A stretch of DNA of 18,515 nucleotides from Candidatus Vampirococcus lugosii (GCF_018420025.1 NZ_JAEDAM010000101.1:1-18515); one strand, 5' to 3'. Positions 1-18,515 are shown, numbered from the stretch's first letter. Notes: generated by a model not told the origin, from the sequence alone. Program-made: numbers and translations.

Positions 1-21
1 TAGGTTGTTTAAAACTAAAAT

Positions 22-396
22 TTAATTTTTTTTTAAGATATTTCTTACATTACTAATACAATATTTTATTCAAAATTTTTTTTCTATATATTTCTGTGCA
101 TCTTCTGCGGTATTAAATCATTTCTTTTCATTTTCTTCTTTTATTATAGCTATTTCTTTTTCTGATAACTTTGAAGGTTTTCAATTATTTTTAGTTGATA
201 ATAATCACTCTATTCATCAATTATTATATTTTTTTACCCATCTTGCAATTGTATCTTCTGAAATATTTAAAAGTTTTTGAATCTGTTTATATTTTATTCA
301 CTCTAATCTAAATCTTAAACATTGTAATCTTTTTAATGATTTTCAGCTTTTTTCAGTTTTTTCTCTTAACTCTATTTCTTTTATTTTTTCTATCAT
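22..396 (-). CDS. IS630-family transposase, N-terminal helix-turn-helix part; apparently continues beyond the left edge after a -1 shift in an A9 run
   Basis: ATG 396..394, TAA 24..22, 124 aa with TGA=Gly: MIEKIKEIELREK...LLNISEDTIARWVKKYNNGGIEGLLSTKNNGKPSKLSEKE...FGIKYCISNVRNILKKN*. The order HTH / GxPSKL / second HTH matches IS630/Tc1-type transposase N-termini. The -1 frame after the A9 run (26..34) reads KLNFSFKQP up to the window edge. Confidence 0.7.
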
Positions 397-416
397 AATA
401 TTTTCATTATTTATAA

Positions 417-432
417 ATATATATATATATAT
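417..432. repeat. (AT)8 dinucleotide microsatellite, 21 nt upstream of the transposase ATG
   Basis: Direct reading: atatatatatatatat at 417..432. Confidence 0.9.
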
Positions 433-671
433 TATAACTATTCTTACTAAAAAAGCAAAATATTTTTAGTATATAAATTAAAAGTTATTATCATTATAAA
501 GATTTCCTTTATAAATTAAATAGTTTTCGGAACGAAGTGGAGAAAACACATTATTCTCCCCCTCCTTTTTTAGAAAAAATCAAATTTATTCCCCTTTGAA
601 AGCCTATCATTCCTTATTCTCCGTTAAAAAAATATTTTTTGAATTGCATATAACTAATTTTTAAATATTTA

Positions 672-1871
672 TTATTTAATAGTAAATGATCTAATAGTAT
701 TATAAATATTTTCTTGTACTACAGATTTAAAATCTATTGTTGATAATTCTCATTTTTTAAAAAGTTTGGATAATAAACTAGAACTAACTTCCAAAACTCA
801 ATTTAATTTTCATTTTTTTTCTAATAAAATTTTTAATTGATTTTGATCAAGTATTTTATATGTTTTATTTTTAATAACACTAATATAAAAATTATTTCAA
901 TAAATTCTAGATAAATTTTTATTTTGCGAGTAATTTATAAATATTTGCTTCATATTATTTTTTTGTTTTTCCAAATTATTAATATCTTTAGATATTTTTC
1001 AATACTCATCTATCATTGATTTCAAAGTTTTATTTCATATTTCAGAAATAGTTTCATCATTCATAAAACTATGAGCAAATAATGGACAAATAGATTTATA
1101 TTCACAAAATTTACATCAATAATTTTCTACTTCTTTAAATTCTGATTTATTTCACATATTAAAATTAAATCTTTTGGATTCTATTTCATTTATAATAAAA
1201 ATATATTTATCTTTTATTTTTTCCAAAGATAAATCATCAATTTGCCAAATATCTTTTATATCAAAATGTAAAAAATGTAATTGTGCATAAATATTTTTTA
1301 AATATTTTCAATATTTTTGTTTTATTCATAATGCATAAAGTGTAAGTTGTTCTTTATATTCCTCATTTTCTTGTGTTGGTAAATTTTTATTAGTTTTGTA
1401 ATCATTTATTATAAAATCGTCTCATTTTTTATCTAATCTATCAATTATTCATCTAAATTTTATATTCTCATTTAAACTAAAATTTATATTTTGTTCAGTA
1501 GATATAATTTTTATTGAATCAAAAGGATAATTTTCATTAAAATAATTTGTTATATATATTTCACCTCTTTTTATATAATCCGATAAATTTCAACTTCACT
1601 TTATAATTATTTCTTTTCATTCTTGTGAAATATCATCTATTTTTTGCTTCCAAATAGAATTATATTGTTTCATATAAAAATCTAAATCATTTTTTTGAAA
1701 AACATTTATATCATTATACAAATTTTCCAATACTTTATGAACAATTTCTCATAAAATCAAATCAGAAGTATATTCTTTCTCTTGCAATTTAATTTTATCA
1801 ATATATTTATATCTAAAAGCTAAAGGACATTTATTATATAATTGAATTTGAGAAAAAGAATATACTGACAT
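672..1871 (-). CDS. PD-(D/E)XK nuclease, RecB/AddB/Cas4-like, with Fe-S type cysteine pattern
   Basis: ATG 1871..1869, TAA 674..672, 399 aa with TGA=Gly. Motifs in order: SFSQIQLYNKCPLAFRYKYI, GEIVHKVLE, GIIDRLD, INDYKT, QLTLYALG, CKFCEYKSIC (1+3 Cys as in Cas4/AddB nuclease domains). A ~140-aa C-terminal extension is unassigned. Confidence 0.75.
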
Positions 1872-1918
1872 TCTAATATTATTTAATTATTTAAATCTTT
1901 ATTTTTTTATAAAAAAAT

Positions 1919-2953
1919 CTAAAAATCCCAAGTTCATTTCATACTACTAGATTGAGAATAATTAGTTACCGTAGTTTCAAAAAAGTTTGCTTTTTCGCTA
2001 TTTTGATCTTGTATTCTTTCCAAATGTTTATAAGGATTTTTTGTTGCATCTGGATATAGTGGTTTAATTCATAGACTTTCTAATCTCTGATTTGCAAGAT
2101 ATTTTGTATATCATATTATATTCTCGTCTGCCATTCATATTATTTTATTGTTTAGTATATGTTTGGACCATTCTATTTCTTGATTTACCGCTGTATCCAT
2201 CATTTTCAACAATAACTGTTCATCATAAATATCAGGGAATTCATTTTTTATTTCTTTTATAATATTAGCAAATATTACTACATGTGTTTCTTCATCTCTA
2301 CGAATATAATTAATCATTCTATCGCTTGCCAACATTTTATTATGATCTGCGAGAGTATCAAAAAAAGCAAATCAATTATAAAAATATATACTTTCCAAAA
2401 GCCAATTTGCTACTATACTTCTAAATAAATTTTGGTCATTAGGTTCATTAACAAAATCTTGATATATTTGTCATATAAATTTATTTCTTTCCAACAAATG
2501 TTTGTCTTCTCTTCGGAAATAAAGAATTTTTTCTCTTTTATTAGCTGATACTACAGTTTCCAATATTGTTTGATATGATTGAGAATGTATTGCTTCTTGA
2601 AAAGCCTGTATACTCAAAATTAAATTAACTTCAGGAGAGGTAATATAATCATTAATATTTGGTAAATTCATAGTTTGTATACTATCAAGAAAAGTCAAAA
2701 AAGAAATAATTCAATCATAAGCTTTTCTTTCATCATCATTTAATACTTCATCATATTCAACAGCATCTTTATTTAATCAAGAAACTTTTTCAGGTATCCA
2801 AAAATTTCCAAGCATTACTTTATACATTCATTTAGCCCAAGAATATTTTACATTATTTAAGTTAAATAATCAGGTTGTATTTCAATGTATTATTGTTCTA
2901 TCATCTATATCATCTCTTCAATCTGGATTAAATATTAAGTTTTTTTCTATCAT
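1919..2953 (-). CDS. nrdB: class I ribonucleotide reductase small (beta, R2) subunit
   Basis: ATG 2953..2951, TAG 1921..1919, 344 aa. Motifs: HGNTTGLFNLNNVKYSWAKGMY, NFWIPEKV, LDSIQT, AFQEAIHSQSY, ESIYFYNGFAFF, IRRDEETHV; ends WDF. Track ORFs 2135..2335 and 2471..2698 are in-frame fragments of this gene, split by TGA codons. Confidence 0.9.
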
Positions 2954-3453
2954 AATTTATTTACTATATTATAAAACTTTTCTGTTCTTTCTTCAACAGT
3001 TCAAGTAAGAGTATAATAATCTGGATAAAATATTTCTAATAAATCAACTATTCTATTGTCAATCTCTTTTTGAAATTCAATTCATTCAAATCTAACTCAA
3101 TCATTTTCTAACTCAAATTCAATAGGAATATAAAAAATTGCATCATATCTTTTTTTCAAATTTGCCACTTTTTCAAGAAAATCATAACAATATAATCATT
3201 CAGAATAAGCAAGTATATCATATATACTTCTATCTGATATAAAGTTTTTTGCTTTTTTCTCTTGTATTAGTTGTTGTATAAAAACATTATGTTGAAAATT
3301 TGATTTGTCTATCGGTTCCATATTTTTAGGATTACCCATAATTTCAATTAATTCTCTTGCTATTTCATTTATTTTTGTATAATTTTCTAATTCTAATTTT
3401 TCCAAAAGATTAGTTTTACCCACTCAATGAGCACCTGATATAGCTATTTTCAT
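2947..3453 (-). CDS. P-loop ATPase/kinase-like protein (AAA_28 / NadR C-terminal-like family)
   Basis: ATG 3453..3451, TAG 2949..2947, 168 aa. Walker A is ISGAHGVGKT, with the middle Gly encoded by TGA (3424..3426). Later motifs: FISDRSIYDILAY and YDAIFYIP. The 3' end overlaps the nrdB ATG (TTATGATAG). Confidence 0.7.
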
Positions 3454-3490
3454 ATTTAAATATACATTAAATAAATAAATTTAAATTATT

Positions 3491-4492
3491 TTATTTACTA
3501 TTTTTAACACCAAAAATATAAGTTAAAGAAGTTGCAAAAAATATAGAAGAGAAAGTACCAGCAATAACTCATATCATTAATGTAAATGAAAACAACTGTA
3601 TAACTCAACCTCAAAATATAAACATACTTATCAAAACTAATAAAGTGGAAAAGGATGTTGCCAAAGATCTTCTCATAGTTTGCCATATACTTTTATCAAA
3701 AATTTCTACATAATCAATATTATTATCTTTAATTTCTGATTTATTAATTTTAACTGTTTGTCAATTATCTTTTTCCAATTTTTTTTCTTTAGTATATGAT
3801 ATATTTTCTCTTATTCTATCAAATATTATAATAGTATCATTTATACTATATCACATAATAGTAAGTATAGAAACTATAAATATTAAATCAACTTGTATAG
3901 CACTATTTAGAAACATAAATATTCAATATGCTCATGCAGGAATCAATACATCAAAAAGCAATGTAAACATAGTAACTAATGCCAATAATCAAGGTGAAAG
4001 ATATTCTCTTATTCAAGAAAATGCAAATAACATATAAATTCAAATAAACAACAAACCAAACAGTATAGCAGTAATAGCTGCTTTTTTCATCCAATCTCAT
4101 ATACTAGGACCTATTATAGCATTTTCTAAAATATCATCTCAACTTGAAATATGTCAATTATCAATCAAATAATCTTTAGTTAAACTCGAGAGTAAATCAA
4201 CACTTTTATCATCAGATATATCTAATTCCAATATCAACGATGGATATCATTTTTTTTCTCAAATATAAACTCAAGGAGAATCAAATCAATTATCTACAAG
4301 CAATTTAGAAATTCATTCATCAACTCACTCCAAATTTTGAGATTCTACATCCAATATTAATTCCATTCATCATGTAAACTGTATTGAAAGTCTAAGATTA
4401 GAAAAAAACAATATTAATGAAATTAACATTAAAACAACACCAGACACTATCCAAAACATAGCATTTTTAATAACTGAAAACTTAATATCCAT
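3491..4492 (-). CDS. secF: protein-export membrane protein SecF
   Basis: ATG 4492..4490, TAA 3493..3491, 333 aa. Motifs: IQFTGGMEL, IIGPSIGDW, MGYSINDTIIIFDRIREN, RRSLATSFSTLL. Several conserved Gly are TGA. About 40 aa are inserted after the IREN motif. Confidence 0.85.
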
Positions 4493-4510
4493 AGTAAAAT
4501 TAAATTAGTA

Positions 4511-5251
4511 TTAAATTAAATCATTTAAAATTTGTATTTTTTTGTAAGCATTTTTTGCAGCTTCTTCATTAGACATCTTTTTTTTAGTTCAATATCACTC
4601 ACCAAATATTTCTCAATTTATATAAACAATACACTTATAATTTATAATATTTCATTTTTCATCAAATTCATGTTCATAATTTTCATAATAAGGAACATCT
4701 TTATATAACTTTTGAGAATATTCTTGAACCATAGTTTTATAACTTTTAACATTAGCAGATTTAATATTTTCTATTTTTGAAAAAATTTTATCTTTAACAA
4801 AAGATTCTGCCATATCAGCTCATATATCCAAATAAATATATCAAATCAATGCTTCCAAAGTATCAGACAAAATTGAATCTTTATTCCTTCATCAAGTTTT
4901 TTCTTCACCATAACCGAGGAAAACCATTTTATCCAAGAATATATCTCTTGCAACTTCTGCCAACATTTCTTCTCTTACTAAAGCAATTTTATATAATGTT
5001 AGTTTTGATTCAGGAACATTTTCAAAATATAAATAAAGCATTTTTGCTATCAAACAACCCAAAATAGAATCTCATAAAAATTCTAATCTTTCATTATCAG
5101 GTATAGTATAAGGCAAATCAGAAACATAAGATTTATGAAAAAATGAAATCATCATAAGCTCCTCATTTACAATTAATGACTTATCAATTCAATTCTTTGA
5201 AAGATAATCTTTATATGATGAAATTAATCATTTTGCTTTCTCCGACAACAT
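4511..5251 (-). CDS. rnc: ribonuclease III
   Basis: ATG 5251..5249, TAA 4513..4511, 246 aa. The signature is NERLEFLGDSIL (Gly = TGA at 5072..5074), followed by GGRNKDSILSDTLEALIGYIYLD and a C-terminal dsRBD-like segment. Confidence 0.9.
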
Positions 5252-5277
5252 ATTCAATAAAAAATTAAATATTAAAA

Positions 5278-5811
5278 TTAACTTATTATTTTATGTCAAA
5301 TTCAATTTATCAATTTATAACTATTATTATCACCATAAATTTTTGCCAACATAATCATTTCATTTAAAATAACATTTTTTGGTGTATTAATTAAATTTTT
5401 TTCAGTAAATCATAAAATAAATATTATTTTATCCACCATATCCATACTTGAAAATTCAAAAGTTTCAATATTTTCATTTATTAATTTTTCCAATTGTTCC
5501 AAACAAGTAGAAAAATTTAAAATCATAATAGATATATAATCAAAATCTAAATTTATTTCATAATTTCAAAAAAACTGATTATGTAAATATGAAATATCCA
5601 TATCCAAATTTGAAAAAGAACAAATTTCAGCAATATCTCTTCTTAATTCAATCAAATCTTTATCTGACATATTTTCATAATTAACTATTTTATCAACTTT
5701 TAATATATCATTAAAAAGAATATCTTCATTTGAAAGATATTCTGTAAAAAATTTTTGATAAAAATACAAAAAAACAATTTTCCTAGAAAGAATTCTTGAC
5801 TTTATATTCAT
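5278..5811 (-). CDS. nusB: transcription antitermination factor NusB-like
   Basis: ATG 5811..5809, TAA 5280..5278, 177 aa. The C-terminal part, MVDKIIFILGFTEKNLINTPKNVILNEMIMLAKIYGDNNSYKLINGIGHKI, matches the NusB core pattern (..tP..V.inE.i.lAk.y......k..NgvL.ki). The N-terminal half is divergent. Confidence 0.65.
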
Positions 5812-5841
5812 TAATTTAATTAATTATATTAATATACAAAA

Positions 5842-6069
5842 CTACTCTTCTATTATAGTCTCTTTACTTTTAGTTTTAATAGTAAGGATTTGTTTTCATG
5901 CATAAAATCAACAATGAGGACAAACTCTATGAGAAAGTTTTAAAGTATCACAATTATCACATTTAACTGTTGTAGCTTTATTCAACAACTTCTTTATAGA
6001 ATTAGTCTGCCAAACACTATGTCTATTTTTTTTCTTTGATATAGAAACTTTTTTCTTTGGTACTGCCAT
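5842..6069 (-). CDS. rpmF: 50S ribosomal protein L32
   Basis: ATG 6069..6067, TAG 5844..5842, 75 aa: MAVPKKKVSISKKKNRHSVWQ...CDNC...HRVCPHCGFYAGKQI. Both Gly in CPHCGFYAG are TGA codons. Confidence 0.9.
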
Positions 6070-6099
6070 TTAATAAATAATATTAATCTTATAAAAATA

Positions 6100-6378
6100 C
6101 TAATTTTCTACAATATCTACAAAAGTCTTTAGATATTTTTTTCAATCAAACCTCTCAACTTTTTTCTTTCTAAAAGAAACTTTACCATCAATTTTTGCAT
6201 GAACAGTAAAATCGTTAGTAATATAAACATTTTTTCAAGCTTTATATTTATCTCATTTTTGTCTTATAATTACATTTCCTGCTTTTGCAACTTGTCATCA
6301 AAACAATTTGACTCACCTATATTTAGGATTAGAATCTCTAAGATTTTTTGCACTTCATGCCGCTTTTTTGGTAGCCAT
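6100..6378 (-). CDS. rpmA: 50S ribosomal protein L27
   Basis: ATG 6378..6376, TAG 6102..6100, 92 aa: [51 protein letters not shown].... It aligns residue for residue with the bacterial L27 N-terminus. Six TGA codons all fall on conserved Gly, including the tandem TGA TGA at 6295..6300 (the FGG motif). Confidence 0.95.
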
Positions 6379-6563
6379 TTAAATTTTAATTTTTATAATA
6401 TAAAATATGTTATATATCGATTATGTATAATTATTTTTTTAAATTTTTCAAGACAAATTTTCTTTTTTATGATCACAAGATTAAATTATTATGAATAAAG
6501 TTTGTATTATTCAAAAACTTATTGATAAAAAAATCAATTCATTACCAATAATTGTTTATTTCC

Positions 6564-6598
6564 AAAAAAAACTGTAAACAACTCTACTATTTCTTACA
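6564..6598 (-). repeat. 35-bp element, copy B (inverted relative to copy A at 17959..17993)
   Basis: The minus strand reads TGTAAGAAATAGTAGAGTTGTTTACAGTTTTTTTT. This matches 33 of 35 positions of 17959..17993 on the plus strand. It lies 55 nt 3' of the stop of the 6653..6829 gene, in the same orientation. Confidence 0.85.
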
Positions 6599-6652
6599 TA
6601 TTAAATTATTGAAATAACAAAACACAAATACAATATAATTTATAAAAAATAT

Positions 6653-6829
6653 TTATTTATCTTTTTTATCTTTCATAACATATAAAGGTATTTGTGATAA
6701 TATTATTCAAATTGTCAGTCATATAAAACCAGCTTTAAGTATATTATCTTCAACAAAAATAATATAAGAAACAATTGAACCAAAAAATCATACACTTCAT
6801 AATATTTTAGATAATAATTCTTTACTCAT
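6653..6829 (-). CDS. small hypothetical membrane protein (58 aa, two hydrophobic segments)
   Basis: ATG 6829..6827, TAA 6655..6653: MSKELLSKILGSVGFFGSIVSYIIFVEDNILKAGFIGLTIGIILSQIPLYVMKDKKDK. It is open only if TGA=Gly. No family was recognised. Confidence 0.5.
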
Positions 6830-6869
6830 AATAATAATTAATTAATTTTATAAAATATAATATTATTTT

Positions 6870-8354
6870 TTAATAATCAAGTTTATGATAAACTATATAT
6901 GTATCTTTATAATCTTTTACAAAGTATCATTGTTCACTTAATTTATTTCTAAATTCATCTGCTTTTTTGTAATCTCTTTCTAATTTAGCTTTTCGTCTTT
7001 CTTGAGCAATTTGAGTTATAAAGTAAGGAATAGGCATTTTATCTAAATTTTCTTTTTTGTTTATCAAATCTTTAAACAAACCAAATTTAAAAATATTTAA
7101 ATCAAACCAAGCAAATAAATTTAATGATTCAACATTTAATTTATCAACATCTTTATTAAGAATACTTAATAATCTAGGAGTATTTAGATCATCCAATAAA
7201 CAATTCAAAATGTTTTTTAAAAATATTTTTGCTTCTTTAGTTTGTAAATTTTTCTCTATTTCTTTAATATCTCAAGTAGACATTTGTACTGAAGTTGAAC
7301 GAGGATTTGCCCATAATTTATTTACCAAATTTCTTTTAGTAATATATGCTTTATGAATTGCATCCCAATTAAATTTTAAAGAATTTCTATATTGAGCAGT
7401 AAAATAAAAATATCTTAAATCATATACTGTATATCATTTTTTTTCCAAATCTGGTATTGATAATGTGTCTCAAGAAGATTTAGAAAGTTTTTTCCCATCA
7501 AAATTTAAAAATTGTGAATGCATCCAATATTTTACCCATGGTTTATCACTAACAAAAGAACATTCACTTTGAGCTATTTCATTAGTATGATGAGTTGTTA
7601 TATGATCTATTCATCAAGTATGTATATCAAAATTTTTTCATAAAATAGCTTTTGACATTGCAGAACATTCTATATGCCATCAAGGAAATCACAATCACCA
7701 AGGACTATTTCGTTCCATATGTCTTTTTTCTCATCTTTTGGAAAATTTCCAAAGAGCAAAATCTGTAATATTTTTTTTATTATCATTAGAAATTCTAGCT
7801 CAAGATTCTATTCATAAAATATGTTTTTCATAATTTTCTCACATAAGTTTACCATAATCATCAATTTTGGAAGTGTCCATATACATTCAATCATTATTAA
7901 TTTTGTATACAAAACCTTTTTCTTCCAAAGATTTTATAAGATCAATTTGTTCTTGAATATAATCTGTTGCTTTTGGAAAAAAATCAAAATTTAATTCTAA
8001 CTTATTAATATAATTTATAAAATTTTTTTCATATTTTTTGGCAATATCCCAAGCAGTAAGTCATTCTCTAATAGCTCATTTTTCCATTTTATCTTGTCAA
8101 GAGTCAGCATCATCAGTAAGATGTCAAACATCTGTAATATTAACAACATGTTTCAAAGGGTAATTTAATATATTTCTTATTATATCTCATAATAATCATG
8201 CAAAAACAAAAGCTCTTAAATTTCAAAAATGAGGATCAGAATATACTGTAGGACCACAAGTATATATTCATACAAAATCTTTTTTTCATTCATCAAAAAA
8301 CGGAATAAATTTTTCTTTTTCTCTAGTTAATGTATTGTATATGTACAAATTCAT
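6870..8354 (-). CDS. cysS: cysteine--tRNA ligase
   Basis: ATG 8354..8352, TAA 6872..6870, 494 aa. Motifs: [19 protein letters not shown] (HIGH-type motif, Gly = TGA), [24 protein letters not shown]-terminal [17 protein letters not shown]. Track ORF 6927..7208 is an in-frame fragment of this gene. Confidence 0.9.
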
Positions 8355-8599
8355 ATTATAAAAAATACTTAGATAAGTAAATTACTTGTATTATATTAAA
8401 ATATATAAAATATTCAAGTTTTTTATTATTTATTTTACAATAAAAAAGTAAATAATCTAGTTTATTATTCTAATAAGTTTTTCAGTATATAATTTAAAGA
8501 TATAACATTGTTCATTAAAAATTAAAAACAATATTGTTATACTAACAATTTTATTTTTTATGACATTTTAAAATTGCTATCACAAAAAACAAAAAAAAC

Positions 8600-8627
8600 T
8601 TGACTTATATATTATTTTGTTTATAAT
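8600..8627 (+). promoter_or_regulatory. near-consensus sigma70-type promoter
   Basis: TTGACT at 8600..8605, a 16-nt spacer, then TATAAT at 8622..8627. This is the best -35/-10 pair I could find in the window. Confidence 0.6.
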
Positions 8628-8662
8628 AACATTTCCTTGTCTATCCTAGTTAGGAGGTCAAA

Positions 8663-8806
8663 ATGACTGAAGAAGTAGTGTTAAAATGCCCTGATGGTAT
8701 TACAAGGCGATTTTTTGTCCAAAAAGAGGGTGTTATATCTCCCAAATTTGCTATCTATGAAAGAGCATTTTTTTGGAAACAAAAAAATCGGAGAAACAAG
8801 AAATAG
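8663..8806 (+). CDS. candidate 47-aa basic small protein
   Basis: AGGAGG at 8652..8657 lies 5 nt before ATG 8663; TAG at 8804..8806. Sequence: MTEEVVLKCPDGITRRFFVQKEGVISPKFAIYERAFFWKQKNRRNKK. There are no TGA codons and no family was recognised. Coding status is uncertain. Confidence 0.4.
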   Translation: MTEEVVLKCPDGITRRFFVQKEGVISPKFAIYERAFFWKQKNRRNKK

Positions 8807-8865
8807 AAAGTCGGTCCCAGATGTTATCTCTATGAGATACAATAATTGACTTCTATTTCTATTTA

Positions 8866-8893
8866 CCAAGGATTATATATCCTTGGTTTTTTT
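8866..8893 (+). terminator. rho-independent terminator
   Basis: CCAAGGAT (8866..8873), loop TATAT, ATCCTTGG (8879..8886), followed by T7 (8887..8893). Confidence 0.8.
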
Positions 8894-8930
8894 GTATTTT
8901 AATATATAATATATATTTAATAAACTTATA

Positions 8931-9218
8931 TTAAAAAACAGCTTGTAAAACAACTTTTCAATCAAGATTAGCTTTAACAAATGTATTACAAGTTGTAAAT
9001 GATTCTCAATTTGAAACAAAATTATTTCAATTAGTATCAATTAAAAACTCTGATCATTTTATCACAAAACAACTACAAATTCAACAAGTTCAATTCATAC
9101 ATGAAAAAGGCATATCAAATCATGAATTAATTATTTGTTTTAATATATTTTCTTTATCATTTGCTTCAAATGTTTTCATATAATCTCCAAAATTATCTAA
9201 TATATATATCTGAATCAT
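8931..9218 (-). CDS. 2Fe-2S ferredoxin (plant-type fold)
   Basis: ATG 9218..9216, TAA 8933..8931, 95 aa. The motif MPFSCMNGTCGICSCFVIKG fits C-x4-C-x2-C, with the conserved Gly residues encoded by TGA. A later FTTC supplies the fourth Cys. Confidence 0.75.
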
Positions 9219-9251
9219 TTTAATTATTAAATATTTAAATAAAAAATATAA

Positions 9252-9707
9252 TTATATTAATAAATTCATAAGATCTTTATTTTTAGGACTTATTAATATT
9301 TTTTTTCAATCAAACATATTTATTCTATAAATATTATTTAATGAAGTAGTAAACATAACATCTCAAGTAATAAAATTTACTCTAATTCATAATCAATAAT
9401 AAAAAGGAACTTTTCCTATATAATCAATTTTTTCTATATCTTTTTTTTCCAATAAATATTTTCTTTTTCAAGGAGTAATTATTGTAATTCAATTATTATC
9501 TATTTCATATTTTAGATTATTTACAAGTCTTATAATAAAAAAAACACTAACTCAAGATATAATTAATACTATAAAATATAAAATATCATAATTTCACATA
9601 AAATATGCAAATACAGAAAAGTTTAATAAAAAAATAAAAATAATTCAATTAAAAATAATCAAAAATTTAATTCAAAAATCTTTATATCAATAAGTAATAT
9701 TTGACAT
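9252..9707 (-). CDS. hypothetical membrane protein (two N-terminal TM segments plus a bacterial PH-like C-terminal part)
   Basis: ATG 9707..9705, TAA 9254..9252, 151 aa: MSNITYGYKDFGIKFLIIFNGIIFIFLLNFSVFAYFMGNYDILYFIVLIISGVSVFFII..YEIDNNGITIITPGKRKYLLEKKDIEKIDY... The PH-like assignment rests only on the pattern. Confidence 0.5.
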
Positions 9708-9724
9708 ATTATATCATTAATTTA

Positions 9725-10780
9725 TTAAAAATTAAATTGATAAAAAATCATAACTAAAGCAATCAATGAAAGAACTCATTGAATAAGCCATAATTTCATA
9801 ACTATAGTATATTCAGCATTTCATTTATATTCTAATAAATGATGAAATGGTGCTATAGCAAATAGTTTTTTCTTAAAAATTTTTTTCCAAAATATCTGTA
9901 AAAAAGAAGTAGACAATTCTACCCAAAATATCAAAAACAAAAACATAAAAGGGATTATTATACCAACTCTAATATCTAATAAATAAATTAAAGAAGAGAT
10001 TAATCATCATAGTGCAAGTGCACCACTATCTCACATAAATATTTTTGCTGGATTGATATTAAACCACAAAAAAGCTAATAAACTACCCAAAACTATAGCA
10101 ATAACAGTAGTTGCCAAATACCAACCATAAAAAAAAGTAATAATTCAAAGAACAGCTAAAATCATAATACAAAGTCAACCTACTAATCAATCCAAACCAT
10201 CAGTAATATTTATTGCATTAACTACAGCTATTGTAAAAATAAAAGTAAAAATTGAATAAAAAAATCAAATATCTACACTTCAAGTAAAAGGCCATAAATT
10301 TATTGAAGTAATTCATAATCTAATATAAAACCAATAACTGATAAATGCAGAAAATAAAAACATCCAAACAAGTTTCATTTTAGCAGTAAGTCATTTTATC
10401 TTACCTATTCATTTGATATTTAAATAATCATCTATAAGTCATAGTATTCACATACTAAAAAAAGCAAAAAGTATTATATATGTTTCTTGTCTTGTAACTA
10501 AAGAAAAATTTATAAAATCAAGATATTGTAATATATAAGAAAACAAAACTAATAATAAAACTATAAAAAGCACCAATCATCATCCCATAGTTGGTGTACC
10601 TATTTTATGTGAATGTAATTTATTAAAAATAATTGCCTTACCTCATCAAGTTCAATCTTCACGAAGATTTTTACCAGCCTTTATATAAGATAATAAATAA
10701 ATATAAAAAGGGTACAAAATTAAACTTATAAAAAAAGCAAACATTAAATAAAGCAATATACTATCAAGTTTCAATAACAT
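9725..10780 (-). CDS. mraY: phospho-N-acetylmuramoyl-pentapeptide transferase
   Basis: ATG 10780..10778, TAA 9727..9725, 351 aa. Motifs: GTPTMGGGL, LIDDYLNIKG, NAINITDGLDGLVGG, MGDSGALALGG, APFHHLLEYKG. Many of the conserved Gly are TGA. Confidence 0.9.
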
Positions 10781-10892
10781 TTAAAAAAATAATTTAATTA
10801 AAAAACATTTTCATATATTTAATGATTTTAAAAATAAAATCAATTCATATTATTTGATAAAATTTAATAAATATAAAAAAGTTCAAAAAATA

Positions 10893-11888
10893 CTATATAT
10901 CAAAAAATCAATTATTAGTTTCTTCTTTTTTAGTATTATTTGATAAATTTATAAGATCATTTATATCATAATTAAATTCTTTATTATCAATAAATATTTT
11001 ATTATGTTTCAAAAAATATAATAAAACTCATAAAGTCATTTTTACATCATTTTTACAATATAATTTTACTTTATTGTATGCATTTTGGTCTCAAGATTTT
11101 ATATATTCTTTTAAGTATTGTTCTCATTCCAATCAAGATTCCAAAGTTTTTCATATAGACAATAAACTTTTACTTACTGCATTAAGTCATATTCTTTTTC
11201 ATGTAAGTCTTCGTATAAATAAAAATAAATCTATACTTTTTTCATTTAAATCATTTATTTTTTCATCTCAATAATCTGTATTATAAATACTAACAGGATT
11301 ATCAAAATAAATACTATTATATCACACTATCCATCAATCAAAACTTAACATAAAATCAACAAATTTTGTAATACTTTTTCTATCTACTAATCTATATTTT
11401 ACAGATTTTAAATGATCTTGATTTGAAATTACAGTATAAGCTATCATAAATTTCATATTTTTTAAATCATTTATATTTCATATAGTTTCAATATCATATA
11501 CCAAATAAGGTTTATCTTTTATAGTTTTATATTTTCATTGTTTAAATTCTTCAAATAGAGTTTGAGAAATAGTTTTATTTTCTTTTATTAGTTTATTTAC
11601 TTTTTTTTGACTTTTTAATTGAGAATGAAAATTATTTATTTCATCTTTATCCATACTTATTTGTATTTTTTCTTTTTCATCACACAAAATATATCATTCT
11701 CAATTTTTTTCTATTTTGAACACTGGTCAATTTCATTCAAAAAAATAAACACAATCACCATATTTAGTACTATCTTTCAAAAACTCTTTCAAATAATTAT
11801 ATTTATTTTTTAAATATAAATTTTGTAAATTTTTTATAAATCAAGTTTTAACTTCAAATAATTGTTCATAAGTAAATTTTTTATACAT
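10893..11888 (-). CDS. RNase H-like / DEDD-type 3'-5' exonuclease domain protein (PolB-exonuclease-like, YprB-type)
   Basis: ATG 11888..11886, TAG 10895..10893, 331 aa. Motifs: LVYDIETIG (Exo I), VGYNSIYFDNPV (Exo II), LYCKNDVKMT (Exo III). The first ~125 aa are unassigned. Confidence 0.65.
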
Positions 11889-11948
11889 TATTTTTTTAAC
11901 TAAAATAAAAAACTTTTAATTAAAACTAAAATATTTAAAAAATATTTT

Positions 11949-12926
11949 CTAAAAAACAAATCCTACTTTTTTATAAATATCTTTTATTTTATCATTAGCT
12001 ATATTTTCTACTTTACTATTTCAATTTTTAAGAATTTTTTGTACTTCTTCATCAGATATATTTTCTTTTTTTTCTTTGATTGGATTTGTAAAATTTATTA
12101 TTTTCTCATACAAAAACTCTTTAATTTCTTTGAAAGATAATCAACCTTGTATATATCAATCACGAATTTTTTTGTCTTCTTCAAAATTTAAAAATAATTT
12201 CAAAATATTGTAAACATTACACTCATCAGGATTTTTTGGTTCATTAACTCATAAGGACATAGTAGGAATTGATTTAACTTTTTTTAACAAAAGATTATTT
12301 TCATCAAAAAGTCAAATATAATTATTATAAGATTTTGACATTTTTCTTCAGTCAATACCAGTAATTGTTGCCAAATTTTCAACTATTTTTGCTTGTGGAA
12401 GTTTGAAAGTATCACCAAATAAATTATTAAATTTACCAGCAATATCTCTTGCATATTCTACATGTTGTTTTTGATCTTTACCAACTGGAACATAATCAAC
12501 ATCATAAAGCAAAATATCGGAAGCCATAAGTATAGGATAACAAAAAGTTCCAACTGTTGTTTTTTCTTCTTTATCTTTTGCCAAAGCATCTTTGTAAGCA
12601 TGCATTCTTTTCATAAATCCAACATTAGTAATACAAGACAAAACCCAATTTAATTCAGCATGTGCAGAAATTAGTGCAGGATTATAAATATATGTCTTAT
12701 CTGGATTTATTCAACAAGCTAAATAAGTTTTGATAGCACTTAATGAATTTTCTTTTATAAAATTTCAATCATGAATAGCAGTTAAACTATGCATATTTGC
12801 CAAAAACATAAATGTTTCATATTCTCAAATTTCTTGAAAATCAATAATTTGTTTGATAGATGCAAAATAATTTCATATATGTAAATTATCAGAAGTAGGT
12901 TTAATTCAAGTAAGAACTCTTTTCAT
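11949..12926 (-). CDS. trpS: tryptophan--tRNA ligase
   Basis: ATG 12926..12924, TAG 11951..11949, 325 aa. Motifs: LTGIKPTSDNLHIGNY (Gly = TGA at 12873..12875), VPVGKDQKQHVE, GRKMSKS. Track ORF 12348..12641 is an in-frame fragment of this gene. Confidence 0.9.
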
Positions 12927-12954
12927 ATCAAAAATATATTATAAATTAAAATAA

Positions 12955-14736
12955 TTATTTAATTAATTTTTCCAATTCATCAATCATATCTTGTATAACT
13001 TTTAATCAATCTTTATAAAATTTATCTTGAGAAATATCAATATCTATAGTTTGTAAAAGTTCATAAGGTGTAAGACTTCCTCATGCTCTCAAAATATTTT
13101 TATATTTGGGAATGAAAGATTTTCCTTCATTTTGATATTGTTTGTACAATGCAAATGATAATATATTACCAAAAGAATATGAATAACAATAAAAAGGACT
13201 AGCAAAAATATGTGGGATAGCAGACCAAGTAGTTTCTTGTTCAGCAGGAACATCGTATTCTACAGTTTCTCATGAAAGTTCAATTTGACATTCTCTCCAT
13301 ATTTTATTAAAATCTTTATAAGTTAAATTATTACCCTCATAAAAACTTTCATGGACTTTTTTTTCAAAATTAACATATTGAATTTGTCTGAAAATAGTTG
13401 CAAAAGAATTTTCTATTTGTTTTGCCAAAAACGAAACTTTTTCATTATCATTTAAAGTTAATTTAATATAATCAGCGAATATAAGTTCATTAAAAATAGA
13501 AGCTGTTTCTGCCAAACAAAGTCAAGTATCATAAACTTTTCTTGGTTGAGATTGAGAAAAATATCAATGAATAGCATGCCCAAATTCATGAGCAATAGTA
13601 CTTACATTATCTAATGTATCAGAATAATTTAAGAAAACAAAACTTTTATGATCTTTATCATAACTTGCAAAAGCTCATCACCTTTTTCATTTTTGAGGAA
13701 AAACATCTACTTGACCATTAACAAAAAGATCTTTTGTAAATTGAGCAAATTCTTGATCAAAATTTTTCATACAATCCAAAAGAAGTCAAATTCATTCTTC
13801 AAACTCAATTTTTTTATCTTCATCAGATACAGGAGCAAAAACATCGTAATACATAAGTTTTTGTTGCCCTAATAATTTAGCTTTTATTTTATTATATCTT
13901 TGATAAAGAAGGAATGAATTTGTAATTTGTTCCAAAAGTTTTTGAACAATTTCATTAGAAATTTCTTCTGAATTATTTCTAGGTCACATTACTCAATCAA
14001 ATCATCTAATTTTAACATCAACAATCCAATCTTTTACAACACTTGCATAAACATTTCATAAAGAAATTTGTATTTTATTATCCAAATATTTCTCTCTAAT
14101 TGCATCAAATGCTTTTTTTCTTGTCTCAGGATTAGCAGAAAGTCTTAAATTTCTAACTTGATCTTCAGTAAGTTCTTTTTCTTCGCCATCTATATTTAAT
14201 ATAAAAGAAAAACTTCAAGTAAGTTCTTCATGTAAATTTGATAAAACATTAGAATTCGCATTTGATTTTAAATTTAAAGCAAATTCTGTTTTTTCATCCA
14301 ACAAATATTTTACAGAATTTGCTTTTTGTAAAAACCAATTTTTATAATTTTGTAATTCTTCTTTTTTTGAAAATTCTATCATTTTTTCATATCAAATTTC
14401 TTTTATTTCTTGATCAACAAATATTAAATCATTACTAAGATTAGTAACAAAATCATCAAATTCTTGATTTTTTTTCAATACATCTTGATTTTGAGTATCT
14501 AATGCTGATAAAAAATGTAAATATCTTCAAATATTTACAGCAAGATAAGAAATCTTATCATCTAAATCAAACATTTCCAAAAATCATTGAAAATCTAATT
14601 TTGATATATTTCATTTAAATTTTGAAATAAAATTTCTAACCATATTTTCTACTTCTTGCATATCATTATTTATTTTTGGATCATTAATATCTTTATAATA
14701 CTGTTCCAAATCCCATTTAGTTTGTATTTTTTGCAT
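12955..14736 (-). CDS. pepF: oligoendopeptidase F (M3B metallopeptidase)
   Basis: ATG 14736..14734, TAA 12957..12955, 593 aa. Motifs: KRGGAFASY (GG = TGA TGA), zinc motif IAHEFGHAIH, LAETASIFNE. Track ORF 13270..13515 is an in-frame fragment of this gene. Confidence 0.85.
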
Positions 14737-14840
14737 ATATTTTATATATTTATATTAAATAAATTATATCTTATATATACATAATTTATCAATAAATTCA
14801 AACCCAAATTATTAAAATAACAAAAAAATACTTTATAAAC

Positions 14841-14968
14841 TAATATTTTTTATAAAGTATTTTCTTATATTAAGGAATTTATTTAAATAATTTTTTATTA
14901 TCTATAGCTCAAATAATAATTTCAAGAATCTTCCAATATTTCTCTAAATTTACTTGAATCTGAATCTA
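14841..14968. repeat. direct repeat, copy 1 (3' end of the 14898..15446 gene plus its downstream region)
   Basis: By eye it aligns with 15531..15650 at roughly 90% identity with one 8-nt indel. The first 34 nt are identical, and a 45-nt block is identical (14911..14955 = 15593..15637). Confidence 0.9.
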
Positions 14969-15446
14969 TACCTTTTATCATATTATGTACTTCATCAATA
15001 TTATTAGCATTAATATATCAATTATCTCAAGTATTTTCAAGTTCTGCTATCAAAGCATATCATCAATTTTCTGTTCAACGATTATTAAGTGAAATATAAT
15101 AATAATTTTTTCAATCCAAAGGATCACTAGGTAAACTATCCATATATCTAGGAACAAGATAATCTTGTATTTCACTAAGTTCAACCATTCAATCACTTTC
15201 TGGATAACTTCATCTTCATCTACCAGAATAATAAATTGATAAAGCCATTGAAGTTTGTCATAAATGTGATAATCTCGCACTATCTCTTTCTTCTGAAAGA
15301 GCTTGTTCATTTTGTTCATTATCAAGATCTGAATTAGATTGTTCATTATCAAGATTTTGATTATCTTCATTTTCATCAACTTCTCATAAACAACCTCCAA
15401 AAACTGGAACAAATCAGATTAATAATAACAATAATAATTTTTTCAT
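14898..15446 (-). CDS. putative lipoprotein with type IV pilin / pseudopilin-like globular domain
   Basis: ATG 15446..15444, TAA 14900..14898, 182 aa with TGA=Gly. The N-terminus MKKLLLLLLIGFVPVFGGC has a signal peptide and a lipobox-like Cys. An acidic D/E/N/Q linker follows. Then come RDSARLSHLGQTSMALSIYYSGRGRGSYPES...YLVPRYMDSLPSDP...YYYISL...GGYALIAELE, the pattern of the pilin head domain that normally follows the hydrophobic N-terminal helix. Confidence 0.6.
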
Positions 15447-15530
15447 ACAGTTCCTTTAAAATATAAATGTATATACTATATAAATAATATTATTATTTTT
15501 TCAAGTTTAATTATAATAAAATTATTTCAA

Positions 15531-15650
15531 TAATATTTTTTATAAAGTATTTTCTTATATTAAGAAATTCATTTAGTTATTATCTAACTATTAAATAATA
15601 ATTTCAAGAATCTTCCAATATTTCTCTAAATTTACTTAAATCTGAACCTA
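15531..15650. repeat. direct repeat, copy 2 (orphan copy of the pilin-like gene's 3' end)
   Basis: See copy 1. On the minus strand it still reads ...GSDLSKFREILEDSGNYYLIVR*, compared with ...DSDSSKFREILEDSGNYYLSYR* in the intact gene. Confidence 0.9.
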
Positions 15651-16345
15651 ATTTTTTTGATGAAAATTCATGATTTGAATGAGAAGAAAATAAACAACCT
15701 AATTGGTGAAAAGAATGTAAAAGTAGTGATAATCAAAAACCTATTTGTTCATCTATATATAAACCAGTATGTGGGCAAACTTCTATATCATGTCCATCTT
15801 GAACTTTATGTCAAAAACCATTACCTAAAACATATTCTAATTCTTGTTTAGCAGAAAATGATAATGCTGAAATTTTGTATGAATGAGCTTGTAAAGATGA
15901 TAAAGAAATGTTTAATTGGAAATATTGAACAGAAGAAATATATAATGATATAAAAAAATATTTTCCAAATGCAACAAAGGAAAAGGTAGAAAGTATATCA
16001 TATCAAGTATATAATAAATACTTTTCAAAATCTAATTTAAGAGATATTCATAATAAATCAGTTGTATGACTTTATAAAGATTTTGTATGAAGTATTTTGA
16101 GTGTATTAAAAAAATGAGAAATAAAAGAAGAATCGTTAGTATATGCTAGAAATGAGTTGTATACTGCATTAGAGCAATTATGACTAAATTATACAAAACA
16201 AGAAGTAGAAAAAGTTGCAAAAGTAGTATATCATTATTTTAATAAAAATACAAAAATTAATCTTACATTAGATGATATATATAATAAAGATAAAAATTAT
16301 TGGTTAGATTTTGTATGAAGTGTAGCAACTGTATTAAAAAAATAA
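15602..16345 (+). CDS. Kazal-like Cys-rich domain protein with two ~75-aa C-terminal repeats; the open frame lacks a canonical start and signal peptide (probably 5'-truncated)
   Basis: The frame is open for 247 codons (TGA=Gly) from 15602 to TAA 16343..16345. It contains ...CSSIYKPVCGQTSISCPSGTLCQKPLPKTYSNSCLAENDNAEILYEGAC... (about 15746..15892). Two repeats each end in DFVGS..(S/T)VLKK; at the DNA level GATTTTGTATGAAGT occurs at 16079 and 16307. The first in-frame TTG is at 15875 and the first in-frame ATG at 15908, both downstream of the Cys-rich module. Confidence 0.6.
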
Positions 16346-16372
16346 TATAACTAATTAATATTTATTAAAAAA

Positions 16373-16407
16373 GTGAAATAGAACTTAGTTCTTTATTTCG
16401 CTTTTTT
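16373..16407 (+). terminator. rho-independent terminator
   Basis: GTGAAATAGAAC, loop TTA, GTTCTTTATTTCGC (imperfect stem with one bulge), followed by T6 at 16402..16407. It begins 28 nt after the stop at 16345. Confidence 0.7.
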
Positions 16408-16554
16408 ATTGTATATAAATTAGTTTTTATTGTTTGAGTTGTAATAATCTTATGTTAATTTAATATTGTTATATATTATAAATAAAATTTCTTGAAAAAT
16501 GAAATTATTTGTTTATAAGTTAATTCATTTTTGAGAAAAAATAATTTATTTATA

Positions 16555-16568
16555 ATATATATATATAT
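16555..16568. repeat. (AT)7 microsatellite running into the ATG of the 16567 gene
   Basis: Direct reading: atatatatatatat at 16555..16568. The last AT belongs to the start codon at 16567..16569. Confidence 0.9.
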
Positions 16569-16872
16569 GGAAAATAATAATAATTTTGATACATTTTATG
16601 AAATAAGAGAGGATGAAGAAACTGTTGATAGAATAAAAAGTAATATATTAGGTCTATGATTTATGTCAGATGATAATTTTGTTATTTCTTATTTGGACAA
16701 AACAAATGAAGAACAATATTATTATATAGATAATTATAAAGCATATATAGTTGCATATATTCCTGAACTAGATTTATCTATAAAATGAGTTCATTTAGAA
16801 TGAGCTACTTATCATAAATGAAATGTTTTTGATGTTAATACAGATTTAGAAAAAGTAACAAATATACTTTAA
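16567..16872 (+). CDS. hypothetical protein (101 aa)
   Basis: ATG 16567, TAA 16870..16872: MENNNNFDTFYEIREDEETVDRIKSNILGLGFMSDDNFVISYLDKTNEEQYYYIDNYKAYIVAYIPELDLSIKGVHLEGATYHKGNVFDV.... It is open only if TGA=Gly. The stop is 14 nt before the next gene. No family was recognised. Confidence 0.5.
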
Positions 16873-16886
16873 AAATTAAAAGTTAA

Positions 16887-17948
16887 ATGAAAATAGCTTT
16901 TGTACATGATTGGATAATTACCATTTGATGAGCTGAGAAAGTCTTTATAGATTTAATAAAAGAAGAAAAATATTCTCAATGAGAAATATTCTGTGTTTTT
17001 AGTGATAAAAATTTTTTATCAATAAATTGACAAGATATAAAAATAAATTCTGTTATAAAAAATAATTTTTTGATAAATAAAATATGATATCGTAATTTGA
17101 TGCCAATTTTTCCTATATTAAATTATTTTTTATCAAAAAAAATAAAAAAATATAATCCTGATAAATTACTTATATCATCTTTTGCAATAGCAAAAAATAT
17201 AAAATCTAAAGTATACAAAAAAATATATTTACATAGTCCTATGCAATATATACGAGATTCTTATGAAGAATATTTAGAAAAATTATTTTGAATAAAAAAA
17301 CTAATTTTTAAAATTAGTTCAAAATTTTTGAGAAAATGGGATAAAAAATATTTTCAATTTGATGAAGTGTATTTTAATAGTAAATATACAGAAAAATTAG
17401 CACAAAAAATATATTGAATTAAATGAATTGTTAAATACCCAAAAATAAATAATGAAATAGTAAATACTAATATAGTAAATCAAAAAGATAATTATTATAT
17501 TTATATTTGAAGATTAGTAAGGTTTTCCAAAGAATTAGATAAAATAATAGAACTATTTAATAATTTAGATGATAATTTATTAATTGTTTGAGCTTGACCA
17601 GACGAATTATTATTGAAATCAAAAGTTAAAAAATCAAATATAATTTTTTTGTGAGAAATAAATAATCTACAAAAAAAAATAAAATTATTAAAAAAATCAA
17701 AATGATTAATAAATATAACAAAAGAAAGTTTTGGAATAGTTACAGCAGAAAGTTTAAGTTTATGAGTGCCAGTGTTTGCTTACAATTGTTGAGCAAGTCC
17801 TGAATTATTAGATTTAAGATCTGGTGTTTTGATTCATAAAAAAAATCAATATGAACTTAAAAATAAATTTGAAGAATTTAAAAAAATAAAGTTTGATTAT
17901 CAAGAAATTAAAAATAATTTCTTATCAAAATTGGATAAGTATTTATAA
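16887..17948 (+). CDS. glycosyltransferase, GT-B fold, family 4-like
   Basis: ATG 16887, TAA 17946..17948, 353 aa. Motifs: MKIAFVHDWIITIGGAEKV, LLIVGAGPDE, ESFGIVTAESLSLGVPVFAYNCGASPELL. Track ORF 17097..17291 is an in-frame fragment of this gene. Confidence 0.8.
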
Positions 17949-17958
17949 TTTTTTTTAT

Positions 17959-17993
17959 TGTAAGAAATAGTAGCATTGTTTACAGTTTTTTTT
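17959..17993 (+). repeat. 35-bp element, copy A; candidate terminal inverted repeat of the adjacent decayed IS
   Basis: TGTAAGAAATAGTAGCATTGTTTACAGTTTTTTTT. It starts with TG, ends 2 nt before the transposase-relic stop (17996..17998), and begins 10 nt after the glycosyltransferase stop. Confidence 0.8.
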
Positions 17994-17995
17994 AT

Positions 17996-18288
17996 TTATC
18001 AGTGATAAAACTCATCTATAATTTCATATGGTGTTTTATTATCAATTCATTTATGAAGTTTGACACAATTATATCGATTTACAAATCTTTTTAAAGACTT
18101 TTTTCTATTTTCTGTTGAAATAAATGTTTCTTTACTATGTCGTATATCCATTAATGTTTTTATTACTTTTTCAGCTTTACCGTTTGTTTATGGTCTTTTT
18201 ACTTTTGTGTATTTTTTCTTTATTCAGGCTTCAAGACAATATTTCATAAGTTCATGATCTGGTGTTCATGTTTACGATTATTTTCTGT
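17996..18288 (-). pseudogene. rve (DDE integrase-type, IS481/IS3-like) transposase relic, C-terminal part
   Basis: The minus strand reads HELMKYCLEAGIKKKYTKVKRP*TNGKAEKVIKTLMDIRHSKETF...RFVNRYNCVKLHKGIDNKTPYEIIDEFYHG*. An in-frame TAA (18188..18190) sits where the family has Gln in RPQTNGK(A/V)E. A second in-frame TAA lies at 18272..18274. TENNRKHEHQ, resembling the TDNG.EF segment, is in another frame. Weak similarity may extend to about 18365. Confidence 0.7.
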
Positions 18289-18382
18289 TAGTCTCTGATT
18301 TTTATGTTCTTTTTTTTGAGTACATGTTATATGTATATTCATATTTTGTTGTTTTACCTCATCTTTGTAGAACAAAATTTCT

Positions 18383-18407
18383 AAATCCTTGATTTAGACA
18401 AGGATTT
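18383..18407. other. short hairpin (8-bp stem, 9-nt loop)
   Basis: AAATCCTT at 18383..18390 pairs with AAGGATTT at 18400..18407. Confidence 0.6.
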
Positions 18408-18412
18408 GGAAG

Positions 18413-18463
18413 AAAATAAAATTATAAAATTTGTGTACTACACAAATTTTATAATTTTATTTT
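18413..18463. repeat. perfect 25-bp-arm palindrome (51 nt)
   Basis: AAAATAAAATTATAAAATTTGTGTA (18413..18437), c at 18438, TACACAAATTTTATAATTTTATTTT (18439..18463). The arms are exact reverse complements. Confidence 0.9.
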
Positions 18464-18514
18464 AAATAATTTAAATATTTTTTCTTGAAGCTCATTTATT
18501 TGTTCTACTTTATT
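18449..18514 (-). CDS. possible 3' end of a gene entering from the right edge
   Basis: The minus frame reads NKVEQINELQEKIFKLFKIKL* with TAA at 18451..18449, inside the palindrome. Only 21 codons are visible, so this is weak. Confidence 0.2.
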   Translation of the reverse strand, partial: NKVEQINELQEKIFKLFKIKL

Positions 18515-18515
18515 T

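Follow-up and report, generated by a model that had tools for sequence, protein, structure and literature searches.

Gene content and reading frames

The stretch of DNA analysed here, hereafter the window, is an 18,515-nt contig of 21% GC from Candidatus Vampirococcus lugosii (NZ_JAEDAM010000101.1), and our subject is the genetic code in which its genes are written, above all the meaning of the codons UGA and CGA. The assignment to V. lugosii is based on three encoded proteins: the cysteinyl-tRNA synthetase (CysRS), the RNase H-like protein and the group 1 glycosyltransferase are identical to the NCBI entries MBS8122514.1 (a table 25 translation), MBS8122518.1 and MBS8122524.1/WP_213349953.1 of this organism, respectively, and the next named CysRS relative, Ca. 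Absconditicoccus praedator, shares 53% identity. The NCBI taxonomy places V. lugosii in Candidatus Absconditibacteriota (Absconditabacteria/SR1, Candidate Phyla Radiation), a lineage that uses translation table 25. It is a predatory bacterium whose genome was obtained from the amplified DNA of a few cells, and its genome paper states that UGA encodes glycine and uses table 25 for annotation (Moreira et al., 2021, Nat Commun; PMC8080830; PRJNA678638). Hence, the glycine meaning of UGA in this genome is already known. The original prediction, made from the sequence without database searches, had placed the window in a Candidate Phyla Radiation lineage that uses table 25; the lineage and the UGA assignment stand, but CGA probably makes table 25 an incomplete description of the code.

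Under the standard bacterial code (table 11) the window holds just seven stop-to-stop open reading frames (ORFs) of at least 100 amino acids (aa), which sum to 2,400 nt and reach 123 aa at most, whereas with TGA as a sense codon there are 27 such ORFs, the longest of 600 aa. The standard code thus fragments the genes, as had been claimed, and the frames lengthen once TGA is read through; yet reading TAA as sense opens still more ORFs. Since in DNA as AT-rich as this ORF length does not discriminate between codes, we rejected it as an insufficient test and used homology instead, and the genes were found in translations in which TGA stands for an unknown residue (X).

Twenty genes occupy approximately 80% of the window; the minus strand carries 17 of them (22..15446) and the plus strand the other three (15602..17948). 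In-frame TGA codons number 2 to 24 per gene and 240 overall, and no gene is interrupted by TAA, TAG or a frameshift. All 20 end with TAA (14 genes) or TAG (six genes), in line with the proposal that these are the only terminators. Full-length Pfam matches span the TGA codons in 14 of the proteins, namely the PD-(D/E)XK nuclease, NrdB, AAA_28, SecF, RNase III, NusB, L32, L27, CysRS, the 2Fe-2S ferredoxin, MraY, the tryptophanyl-tRNA synthetase (TrpRS), oligoendopeptidase F and the group 1 glycosyltransferase. The features are, in order of position:

22..396, minus strand: IS630-like helix-turn-helix (HTH) ORF, 124 aa; 8 TGA, stop TAA; Pfam HTH_23/HTH_29/HTH_32
672..1871, minus strand: PD-(D/E)XK nuclease, 399 aa; 16 TGA, 1 GGN (N, any nucleotide), stop TAA; PF12705, E-value 4e-24, full length
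1919..2953, minus strand: NrdB (ribonucleotide reductase small subunit), 344 aa; 12 TGA, 1 CGA, stop TAG; PF00268, PDB alignments
2947..3453, minus strand: AAA_28 P-loop protein, 168 aa; 6 TGA, including the Walker A codon 3424..3426; ends TGA-TAG; PF13521
3491..4492, minus strand: SecF, 333 aa; 21 TGA; PF02355
4511..5251, minus strand: RNase III, 246 aa; 11 TGA, including 5072..5074 in ERLEFLGD; PF14622
5278..5811, minus strand: NusB-family protein, 177 aa; 4 TGA; PF01029
5842..6069, minus strand: ribosomal protein L32, 75 aa; 2 TGA, in CPHCGFYAG; PF01783
6100..6378, minus strand: ribosomal protein L27, 92 aa; 7 TGA, including the tandem pair 6295..6300; PF01016
6870..8354, minus strand: CysRS, 494 aa; 24 TGA, 9 TGG, 2 CGA
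8931..9218, minus strand: 2Fe-2S ferredoxin, 95 aa; 7 TGA, including those in C-x-x-G-x-C-G; PF00111
9252..9707, minus strand: hypothetical membrane protein, 151 aa; 11 TGA, 1 GGN; without a Pfam match
9725..10780, minus strand: MraY, 351 aa; 20 TGA; PF00953
10893..11888, minus strand: RNase H-like (YprB-type) protein, 331 aa; 18 TGA, 1 CGA; PF13482
11949..12926, minus strand: TrpRS, 325 aa; 11 TGA, including 12873..12875 in HIGN; PF00579
12955..14736, minus strand: oligoendopeptidase F, 593 aa; 19 TGA, including KRGGAF; PF01432; PDB 2qr4 and 3ce2
14898..15446, minus strand: hypothetical secreted protein or lipoprotein, 182 aa; 13 TGA
15602..16345, plus strand: hypothetical Cys-rich ORF, start uncertain; 11 TGA
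16567..16872, plus strand: hypothetical protein, 101 aa; 4 TGA
16887..17948, plus strand: group 1 glycosyltransferase, 353 aa; 15 TGA, 1 CGA
18003..18515, minus strand: remnant of a degraded rve_3 integrase, at the end of the contig; contains TAA and TAG stops in frame

The amino acid at TGA codons

When seven of the proteins were aligned to their best PDB homologues, glycine stood opposite 52 of the 93 aligned TGA codons and tryptophan opposite none, at a background glycine frequency of 6.4% (binomial p = 2.5e-37). The rate is the same for GGN codons of the window itself, of which 22 of 37 have glycine opposite. Among the individual proteins, the L27 alignment is uniform, with glycine opposite all six aligned TGAs in five PDB L27 chains, and glycine likewise stands opposite seven of nine TGAs of RNase III (PDB 1o0w), 12 of the 18 aligned in MraY (PDB 5jnq) and seven of 11 in TrpRS (PDB 3m5w). 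The expectation that TGA would lie mainly opposite glycine in such alignments is therefore borne out. The codons singled out beforehand as invariant glycines, i.e., 6295..6300 (TGATGA), 6355..6357, 5072..5074, 3424..3426 and 12873..12875, are all TGA on the minus strand, and TGA occupies the glycine positions named for FTGG, MGYSINDT, GTPTMGG, DGLDGL, MGDSG, KRGGAF, HFGN, CPHCGFYAG and C-x-x-G-x-C-G, as the codon check of these motifs confirmed.

CysRS was compared with a panel of 79 loci from named organisms of many phyla, of which the 75 with an uninterrupted table 11 frame were used; the panel came from a scan of genome contigs with tblastn confirmation, which breaks at TGA and hence returned mostly standard-code organisms. 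Against these 75 homologues, glycine is the plurality residue at 18 of the 21 alignable TGA columns and tryptophan accounts for 0%. A second set, 110 distant homologues taken from protein libraries, gave a log-odds score at the TGA codons of +52.6 bits for glycine and -46 for the next-best amino acid. Moreover, tryptophan made up 0% of the 2,219 homologue cells in the TGA columns of CysRS, whereas the TGG columns contained 66% tryptophan (pooled) and 0.3% glycine.

Pfam bit scores, compared for seven proteins with TGA rendered as X, glycine or tryptophan, rose with glycine and fell with tryptophan in all seven cases. In that order of rendering, the scores were 75.8, 95.5 and 67.7 for L27 (PF01016), 97.7, 114.2 and 90.0 for RNase III (PF14622), 84.9, 113.4 and 77.7 for MraY (PF00953), 166.1, 180.3 and 163.1 for TrpRS (PF00579), 115.1, 133.8 and 108.2 for SecF (PF02355), 234.6, 269.8 and 210.9 for CysRS, and 227.5, 239.9 and 215.2 for NrdB (PF00268). 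The protein encoded at 10893..11888 is without a Pfam match as long as TGA is masked, and gives a clear RNase_H_2 match once it is recoded. This protein is YprB-like and carries DEDD exonuclease motifs, and its homologues are widespread in Absconditabacteria and Gracilibacteria.

The composition of the encoded proteins points in the same direction: TGA and GGN together make up 5.7% of codons, which is a normal glycine content, and TGG makes up 0.8%, a normal tryptophan content. In the DNA of relatives, furthermore, one and the same column may hold either TGA or GGN, and these two are nearly the exclusive occupants of the columns that correspond to the 24 CysRS TGAs of the window. Collectively, the comparative evidence indicates that UGA is translated as glycine across the window, that UGG is kept as a tryptophan codon and that termination relies on UAA and UAG only. 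The UGA claim of the original prediction is thus upheld by the PDB homologues, the standard-code CysRS panel, the Pfam scores and the composition. Its companion claim, that tryptophan positions still use TGG, is correct for the examples given (the codons in KYSWAK and KWDL are TGG) but incomplete, as CGA also occurs on conserved tryptophan columns.

UGA is not a minor glycine codon here. The window's genes contain 240 TGA and 61 GGN codons, so that about 80% of glycine codons are TGA (0.77-0.80, at 21% GC), and GGA is down to 12. Among four relatives, the TGA share of glycine codons is 0.85 at 23% GC (locus L083), 0.72 at 27% GC (L082), 0.31 at about 36% GC (L002) and 0.20 at about 36% GC (L084). 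Thus, in the window and these relatives the TGA share tracks AT-richness, which fits AT mutation pressure turning GGA into the now-synonymous TGA. At L083, the CysRS gene (120..1634, protein P0005) has no GGN codon at all, so that its table 4 call contains 0% G, and the 11.6-kb locus as a whole holds 170 TGA vs. 31 GGN codons. The window thus illustrates the extent to which UGA can capture a codon family, here about 80% of the glycine codons.

CGA codons on tryptophan columns

The CGN codons were examined because, in the CysRS alignment, close relatives show 'R' at 23% of the columns where the window has TGG. The arginine-box codons of the window's genes comprise 106 AGA, seven AGG, six CGT, five CGA, and neither CGC nor CGG (124 in total). 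The five CGA codons are located as follows:

7710..7712, minus strand: CysRS, invariant Trp of W-x-SPWG (Trp215)
2513..2515, minus strand: NrdB, conserved Trp column; of five PDB homologues, four have Trp and one has Tyr
17253..17255, plus strand: glycosyltransferase, context HSPMQYI-CGA-D
6993..6995, minus strand: CysRS C-terminal domain, variable column, E/K/D/A in distant homologues and K/L/W/'R' in relatives
11211..11213, minus strand: RNase H-like protein, variable column

At the column of the CysRS codon 7710..7712, tryptophan is present in 74 of the 75 standard-code homologues and 103 of the 110 distant homologues, and the DNA of close relatives carries TGG or CGA. Replacing arginine with tryptophan at CGA raised the Pfam score by 5.9 bits in CysRS and 3.1 bits in NrdB. 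At the glycosyltransferase column, 112 relatives show 'R' in 57 cases, W in 51 and any other residue in only four, and the same split between R and W recurs among the relatives at both TGG columns of this protein. None of the five CGA codons occupies a conserved arginine column, and the two on variable columns are uninformative.

Comparison with 125 close relatives revealed a marked asymmetry. Columns with at least 90% tryptophan in distant homologues are W in 66% and 'R' in 33% of the close relatives, while columns with at least 90% arginine are R in 95% and K in 5%, with no W. The exchange is one-directional: 'R' appears at tryptophan columns and W never at arginine columns. The DNA of the four relatives agrees with this, since the eight conserved tryptophan columns of CysRS hold only TGG, CGA or CGG. 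AGA never occurs there, despite being by far the commonest arginine codon in the relatives' genomes; AGA columns are arginine. In one of these relatives, the Absconditabacterales metagenome-assembled genome L002, five codons of the CysRS gene that are TGG in the window are CGA (four) or CGG (one). CGT acts as an arginine codon, as seen for the MraY codon 10661..10663, which lies opposite a conserved arginine in the PDB 5jnq alignment. A screen of all codons seen at least seven times returned no further deviant except a Cys/Leu tie at TGT.

Hence, CGA probably means tryptophan rather than arginine in V. lugosii, as judged from these alignments. By the same token, the organism is likely to use a two-change code, with UGA as glycine and CGA (presumably also CGG) as tryptophan, rather than plain table 25. 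For Absconditabacteria, such a code has until now been a computational prediction only. Our literature search found no paper that links Vampirococcus with CGA recoding.

Competing explanations, context and known codes

Could the TGA codons be real stops? On that account the window would be a decayed, pseudogene-rich region or an artefact of whole-genome amplification, and the origin of the genome from amplified DNA of a few cells, as well as the degraded integrase with TAA/TAG stops at the right end, would suit it. However, all 240 disruptions are TGA and the genes contain neither an internal TAA or TAG nor a frameshift; the TGAs sit on glycine columns; in an independent assembly of run SRR13241708, the same genes were called and the encoded CysRS is identical; and the TGA pattern is common to the relatives. 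Such non-random placement refutes the account, to which we assign a practically negligible probability. Scarcely more credible is translation table 4, which assigns UGA to tryptophan and is used by Mycoplasma and several insect endosymbionts of similarly low GC. The very low GC content (21%) would be in keeping with it, and automated pipelines have indeed applied it, giving the Logan proteins P0001 and P0390 a W at every TGA. Nevertheless, it would require tryptophan where none was found among the aligned PDB residues or the pooled CysRS cells, it lowers the Pfam score of every protein compared, and it would yield proteins with 5.3% tryptophan and only 1.1% glycine. Table 4 is thus refuted by the PDB alignments, the standard-code panel, the Pfam scores and the composition alike.

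The serious competitor is strict table 25, in which UGA is glycine, CGA is still arginine and the CGA codons on tryptophan columns are real Trp-to-Arg substitutions. The case for it is that there are just five CGA codons, two of which lie on variable columns, that NCBI renders CGA as arginine, and that, in some of the related genomes, Codetta assigned '?' or arginine to CGA or CGG (Shulgina and Eddy, 2021). Against this, true arginine substitutions should mostly be AGA, the codon that holds 106 of the 124 arginine-box positions, while the tryptophan columns show only CGA/CGG; Trp215 of CysRS is nearly invariant in standard-code homologues; conserved arginine columns contain no W; and the Pfam scores are better with tryptophan at CGA. 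We therefore regard strict table 25 as unlikely, though far less so than the two accounts above.

Our preferred explanation, in which we place high confidence as a whole, is that the window is V. lugosii DNA with UGA as the main glycine codon, UGG as tryptophan, UAA and UAG as stops and CGA most likely as tryptophan. Several points weigh against it. The evidence for the meanings of both UGA and CGA is all comparative. The small number of CGA codons, already mentioned, counts here as well; a PDB search with the glycosyltransferase gave no match, so that the reading of its CGA column is drawn from the relatives; and CGG is absent from the window's genes, hence CGA is the codon under test. The AAA_28 gene, which overlaps the start of nrdB by 7 nt, ends KL-TGA-TAG (2947..2952), and its TGA at 2950..2952 alone may keep a residual role as a stop. 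As for the decoding machinery, ARAGORN found no tRNA gene within the window, the decoding tRNAs being taken from the literature, and tRNA-Leu(CAA) was the only tRNA found at the loci of the four relatives. No release factor domain was identified by Pfam among the 20 genes, which, in a window of about 1.4% of a 1.3-Mbp genome, is silent on prfB elsewhere.

Given the published biology of the clade, the following mechanism may be proposed. A tRNA-Gly with the anticodon UCA would read UGA, and the absence or loss of release factor 2 would mean that UGA is not read as a stop; AT mutation pressure could then convert GGA and other GGN codons into TGA. Similarly, a tRNA(UCG) with tryptophan identity would read CGA and CGG, arginine being left to AGA, AGG and CGU. 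In the published account of the CGA/CGG reassignment, such a tRNA(UCG) carries the tryptophan identity elements G73 and no A20 (Shulgina and Eddy, 2021). The window itself encodes TrpRS (11949..12926), which, if CGA is tryptophan, is the enzyme that would charge the tRNA with the UCG anticodon. With respect to UGA, proteomics of a BD1-5 relative recovered 97 peptides unique to a UGA=Gly database vs. three unique to a UGA=Trp database (Hanke et al., 2014).

The window is bounded by pieces of mobile elements. At its left edge (22..396, minus strand) lies the IS630-like HTH ORF without the DDE part, and at its right edge (18003..18515, minus strand) the rve_3 integrase remnant has a TAA where the RPxTNGK motif normally has its Q sequence position; the break in the assembly is probably due to these pieces. 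Between 15447 and 15601 gene orientation flips and GC skew changes from negative on the left to positive on the right, the coding strand being G-rich on both sides. A search for DnaA boxes at this strand switch gave ten matches vs. 6.4 expected, none of them intergenic and without a cluster, and its appearance is that of a divergent promoter region, not of a demonstrated origin. Upstream of cysS there is a gene-free stretch of 576 nt (8355..8930). An Rfam scan of the window with E-values up to 0.1 gave no match, hence no T-box or other known leader upstream of cysS.

The choice of code directly affects annotation: all 20 genes are broken up under table 11, 240 glycines become tryptophan under table 4, and table 25 is right except, probably, at the five CGA codons. 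At every CGA, the published table 25 proteins probably have the wrong residue; if CGA is tryptophan, the V. lugosii proteins in GenBank and RefSeq carry arginine where the cell inserts tryptophan. Errors of the table 4 kind are already in circulation. The Logan contig SRR13241708_136 (L001; 14,888 nt), which lies inside the window at about 650..15540, is the source of the public table 4 translations P0001 and P0390, with, e.g., 24 wrong tryptophans in the 494-aa CysRS. At 90% identity, such mistranslations fall into one cluster with the correct NCBI proteins and can end up representing it. Our own addition is small: the predicted reassignment of CGA to tryptophan gains independent support, at the level of codons, from a named organism. 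If this reassignment is true, V. lugosii, which is microscopically identifiable and was enriched from microbial mats, would suit a proteomic test of sense-codon reassignment in bacteria.

Finally, the window may be set beside the known codes. With table 4, as used by Mycoplasma/Spiroplasma and AT-rich endosymbionts, it shares the capture of UGA as a sense codon, a very AT-rich reduced genome and fragmentation of its genes under table 11, but UGA is tryptophan there and glycine here. The V. lugosii genome paper and the GenBank records describe the same sequence as the window, make no mention of CGA and translate it as arginine. Table 25 has in common with the window UGA as glycine, UGG as tryptophan, UAA and UAG as stops, and the Absconditabacteria lineage. 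In contrast to the window, it treats UGA as an 'additional' glycine codon, not as the majority one, and leaves all other 63 codons standard, including CGA and CGG as arginine, while the window has CGA on near-invariant tryptophan columns of CysRS and NrdB. The window also resembles the Absconditabacteria code that Codetta inferred, in which CGA and CGG mean tryptophan in addition to UGA as glycine, CGN is rare and AGA dominates (Shulgina and Eddy, 2021, eLife); V. lugosii is not named within the searched parts of its tables. The window's GC content of 21% lies below the 0.26-0.38 given in that study for CGA/CGG-reassigned clades. Its CGA usage of nine per 10,000 codons falls inside the range of <37 published there, and it shares with that code CGA at tryptophan columns, rare CGN and dominant AGA. 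Moreover, the DNA of the relative L002 has both CGA and CGG at tryptophan columns, as the Codetta code for Absconditabacteria predicts.

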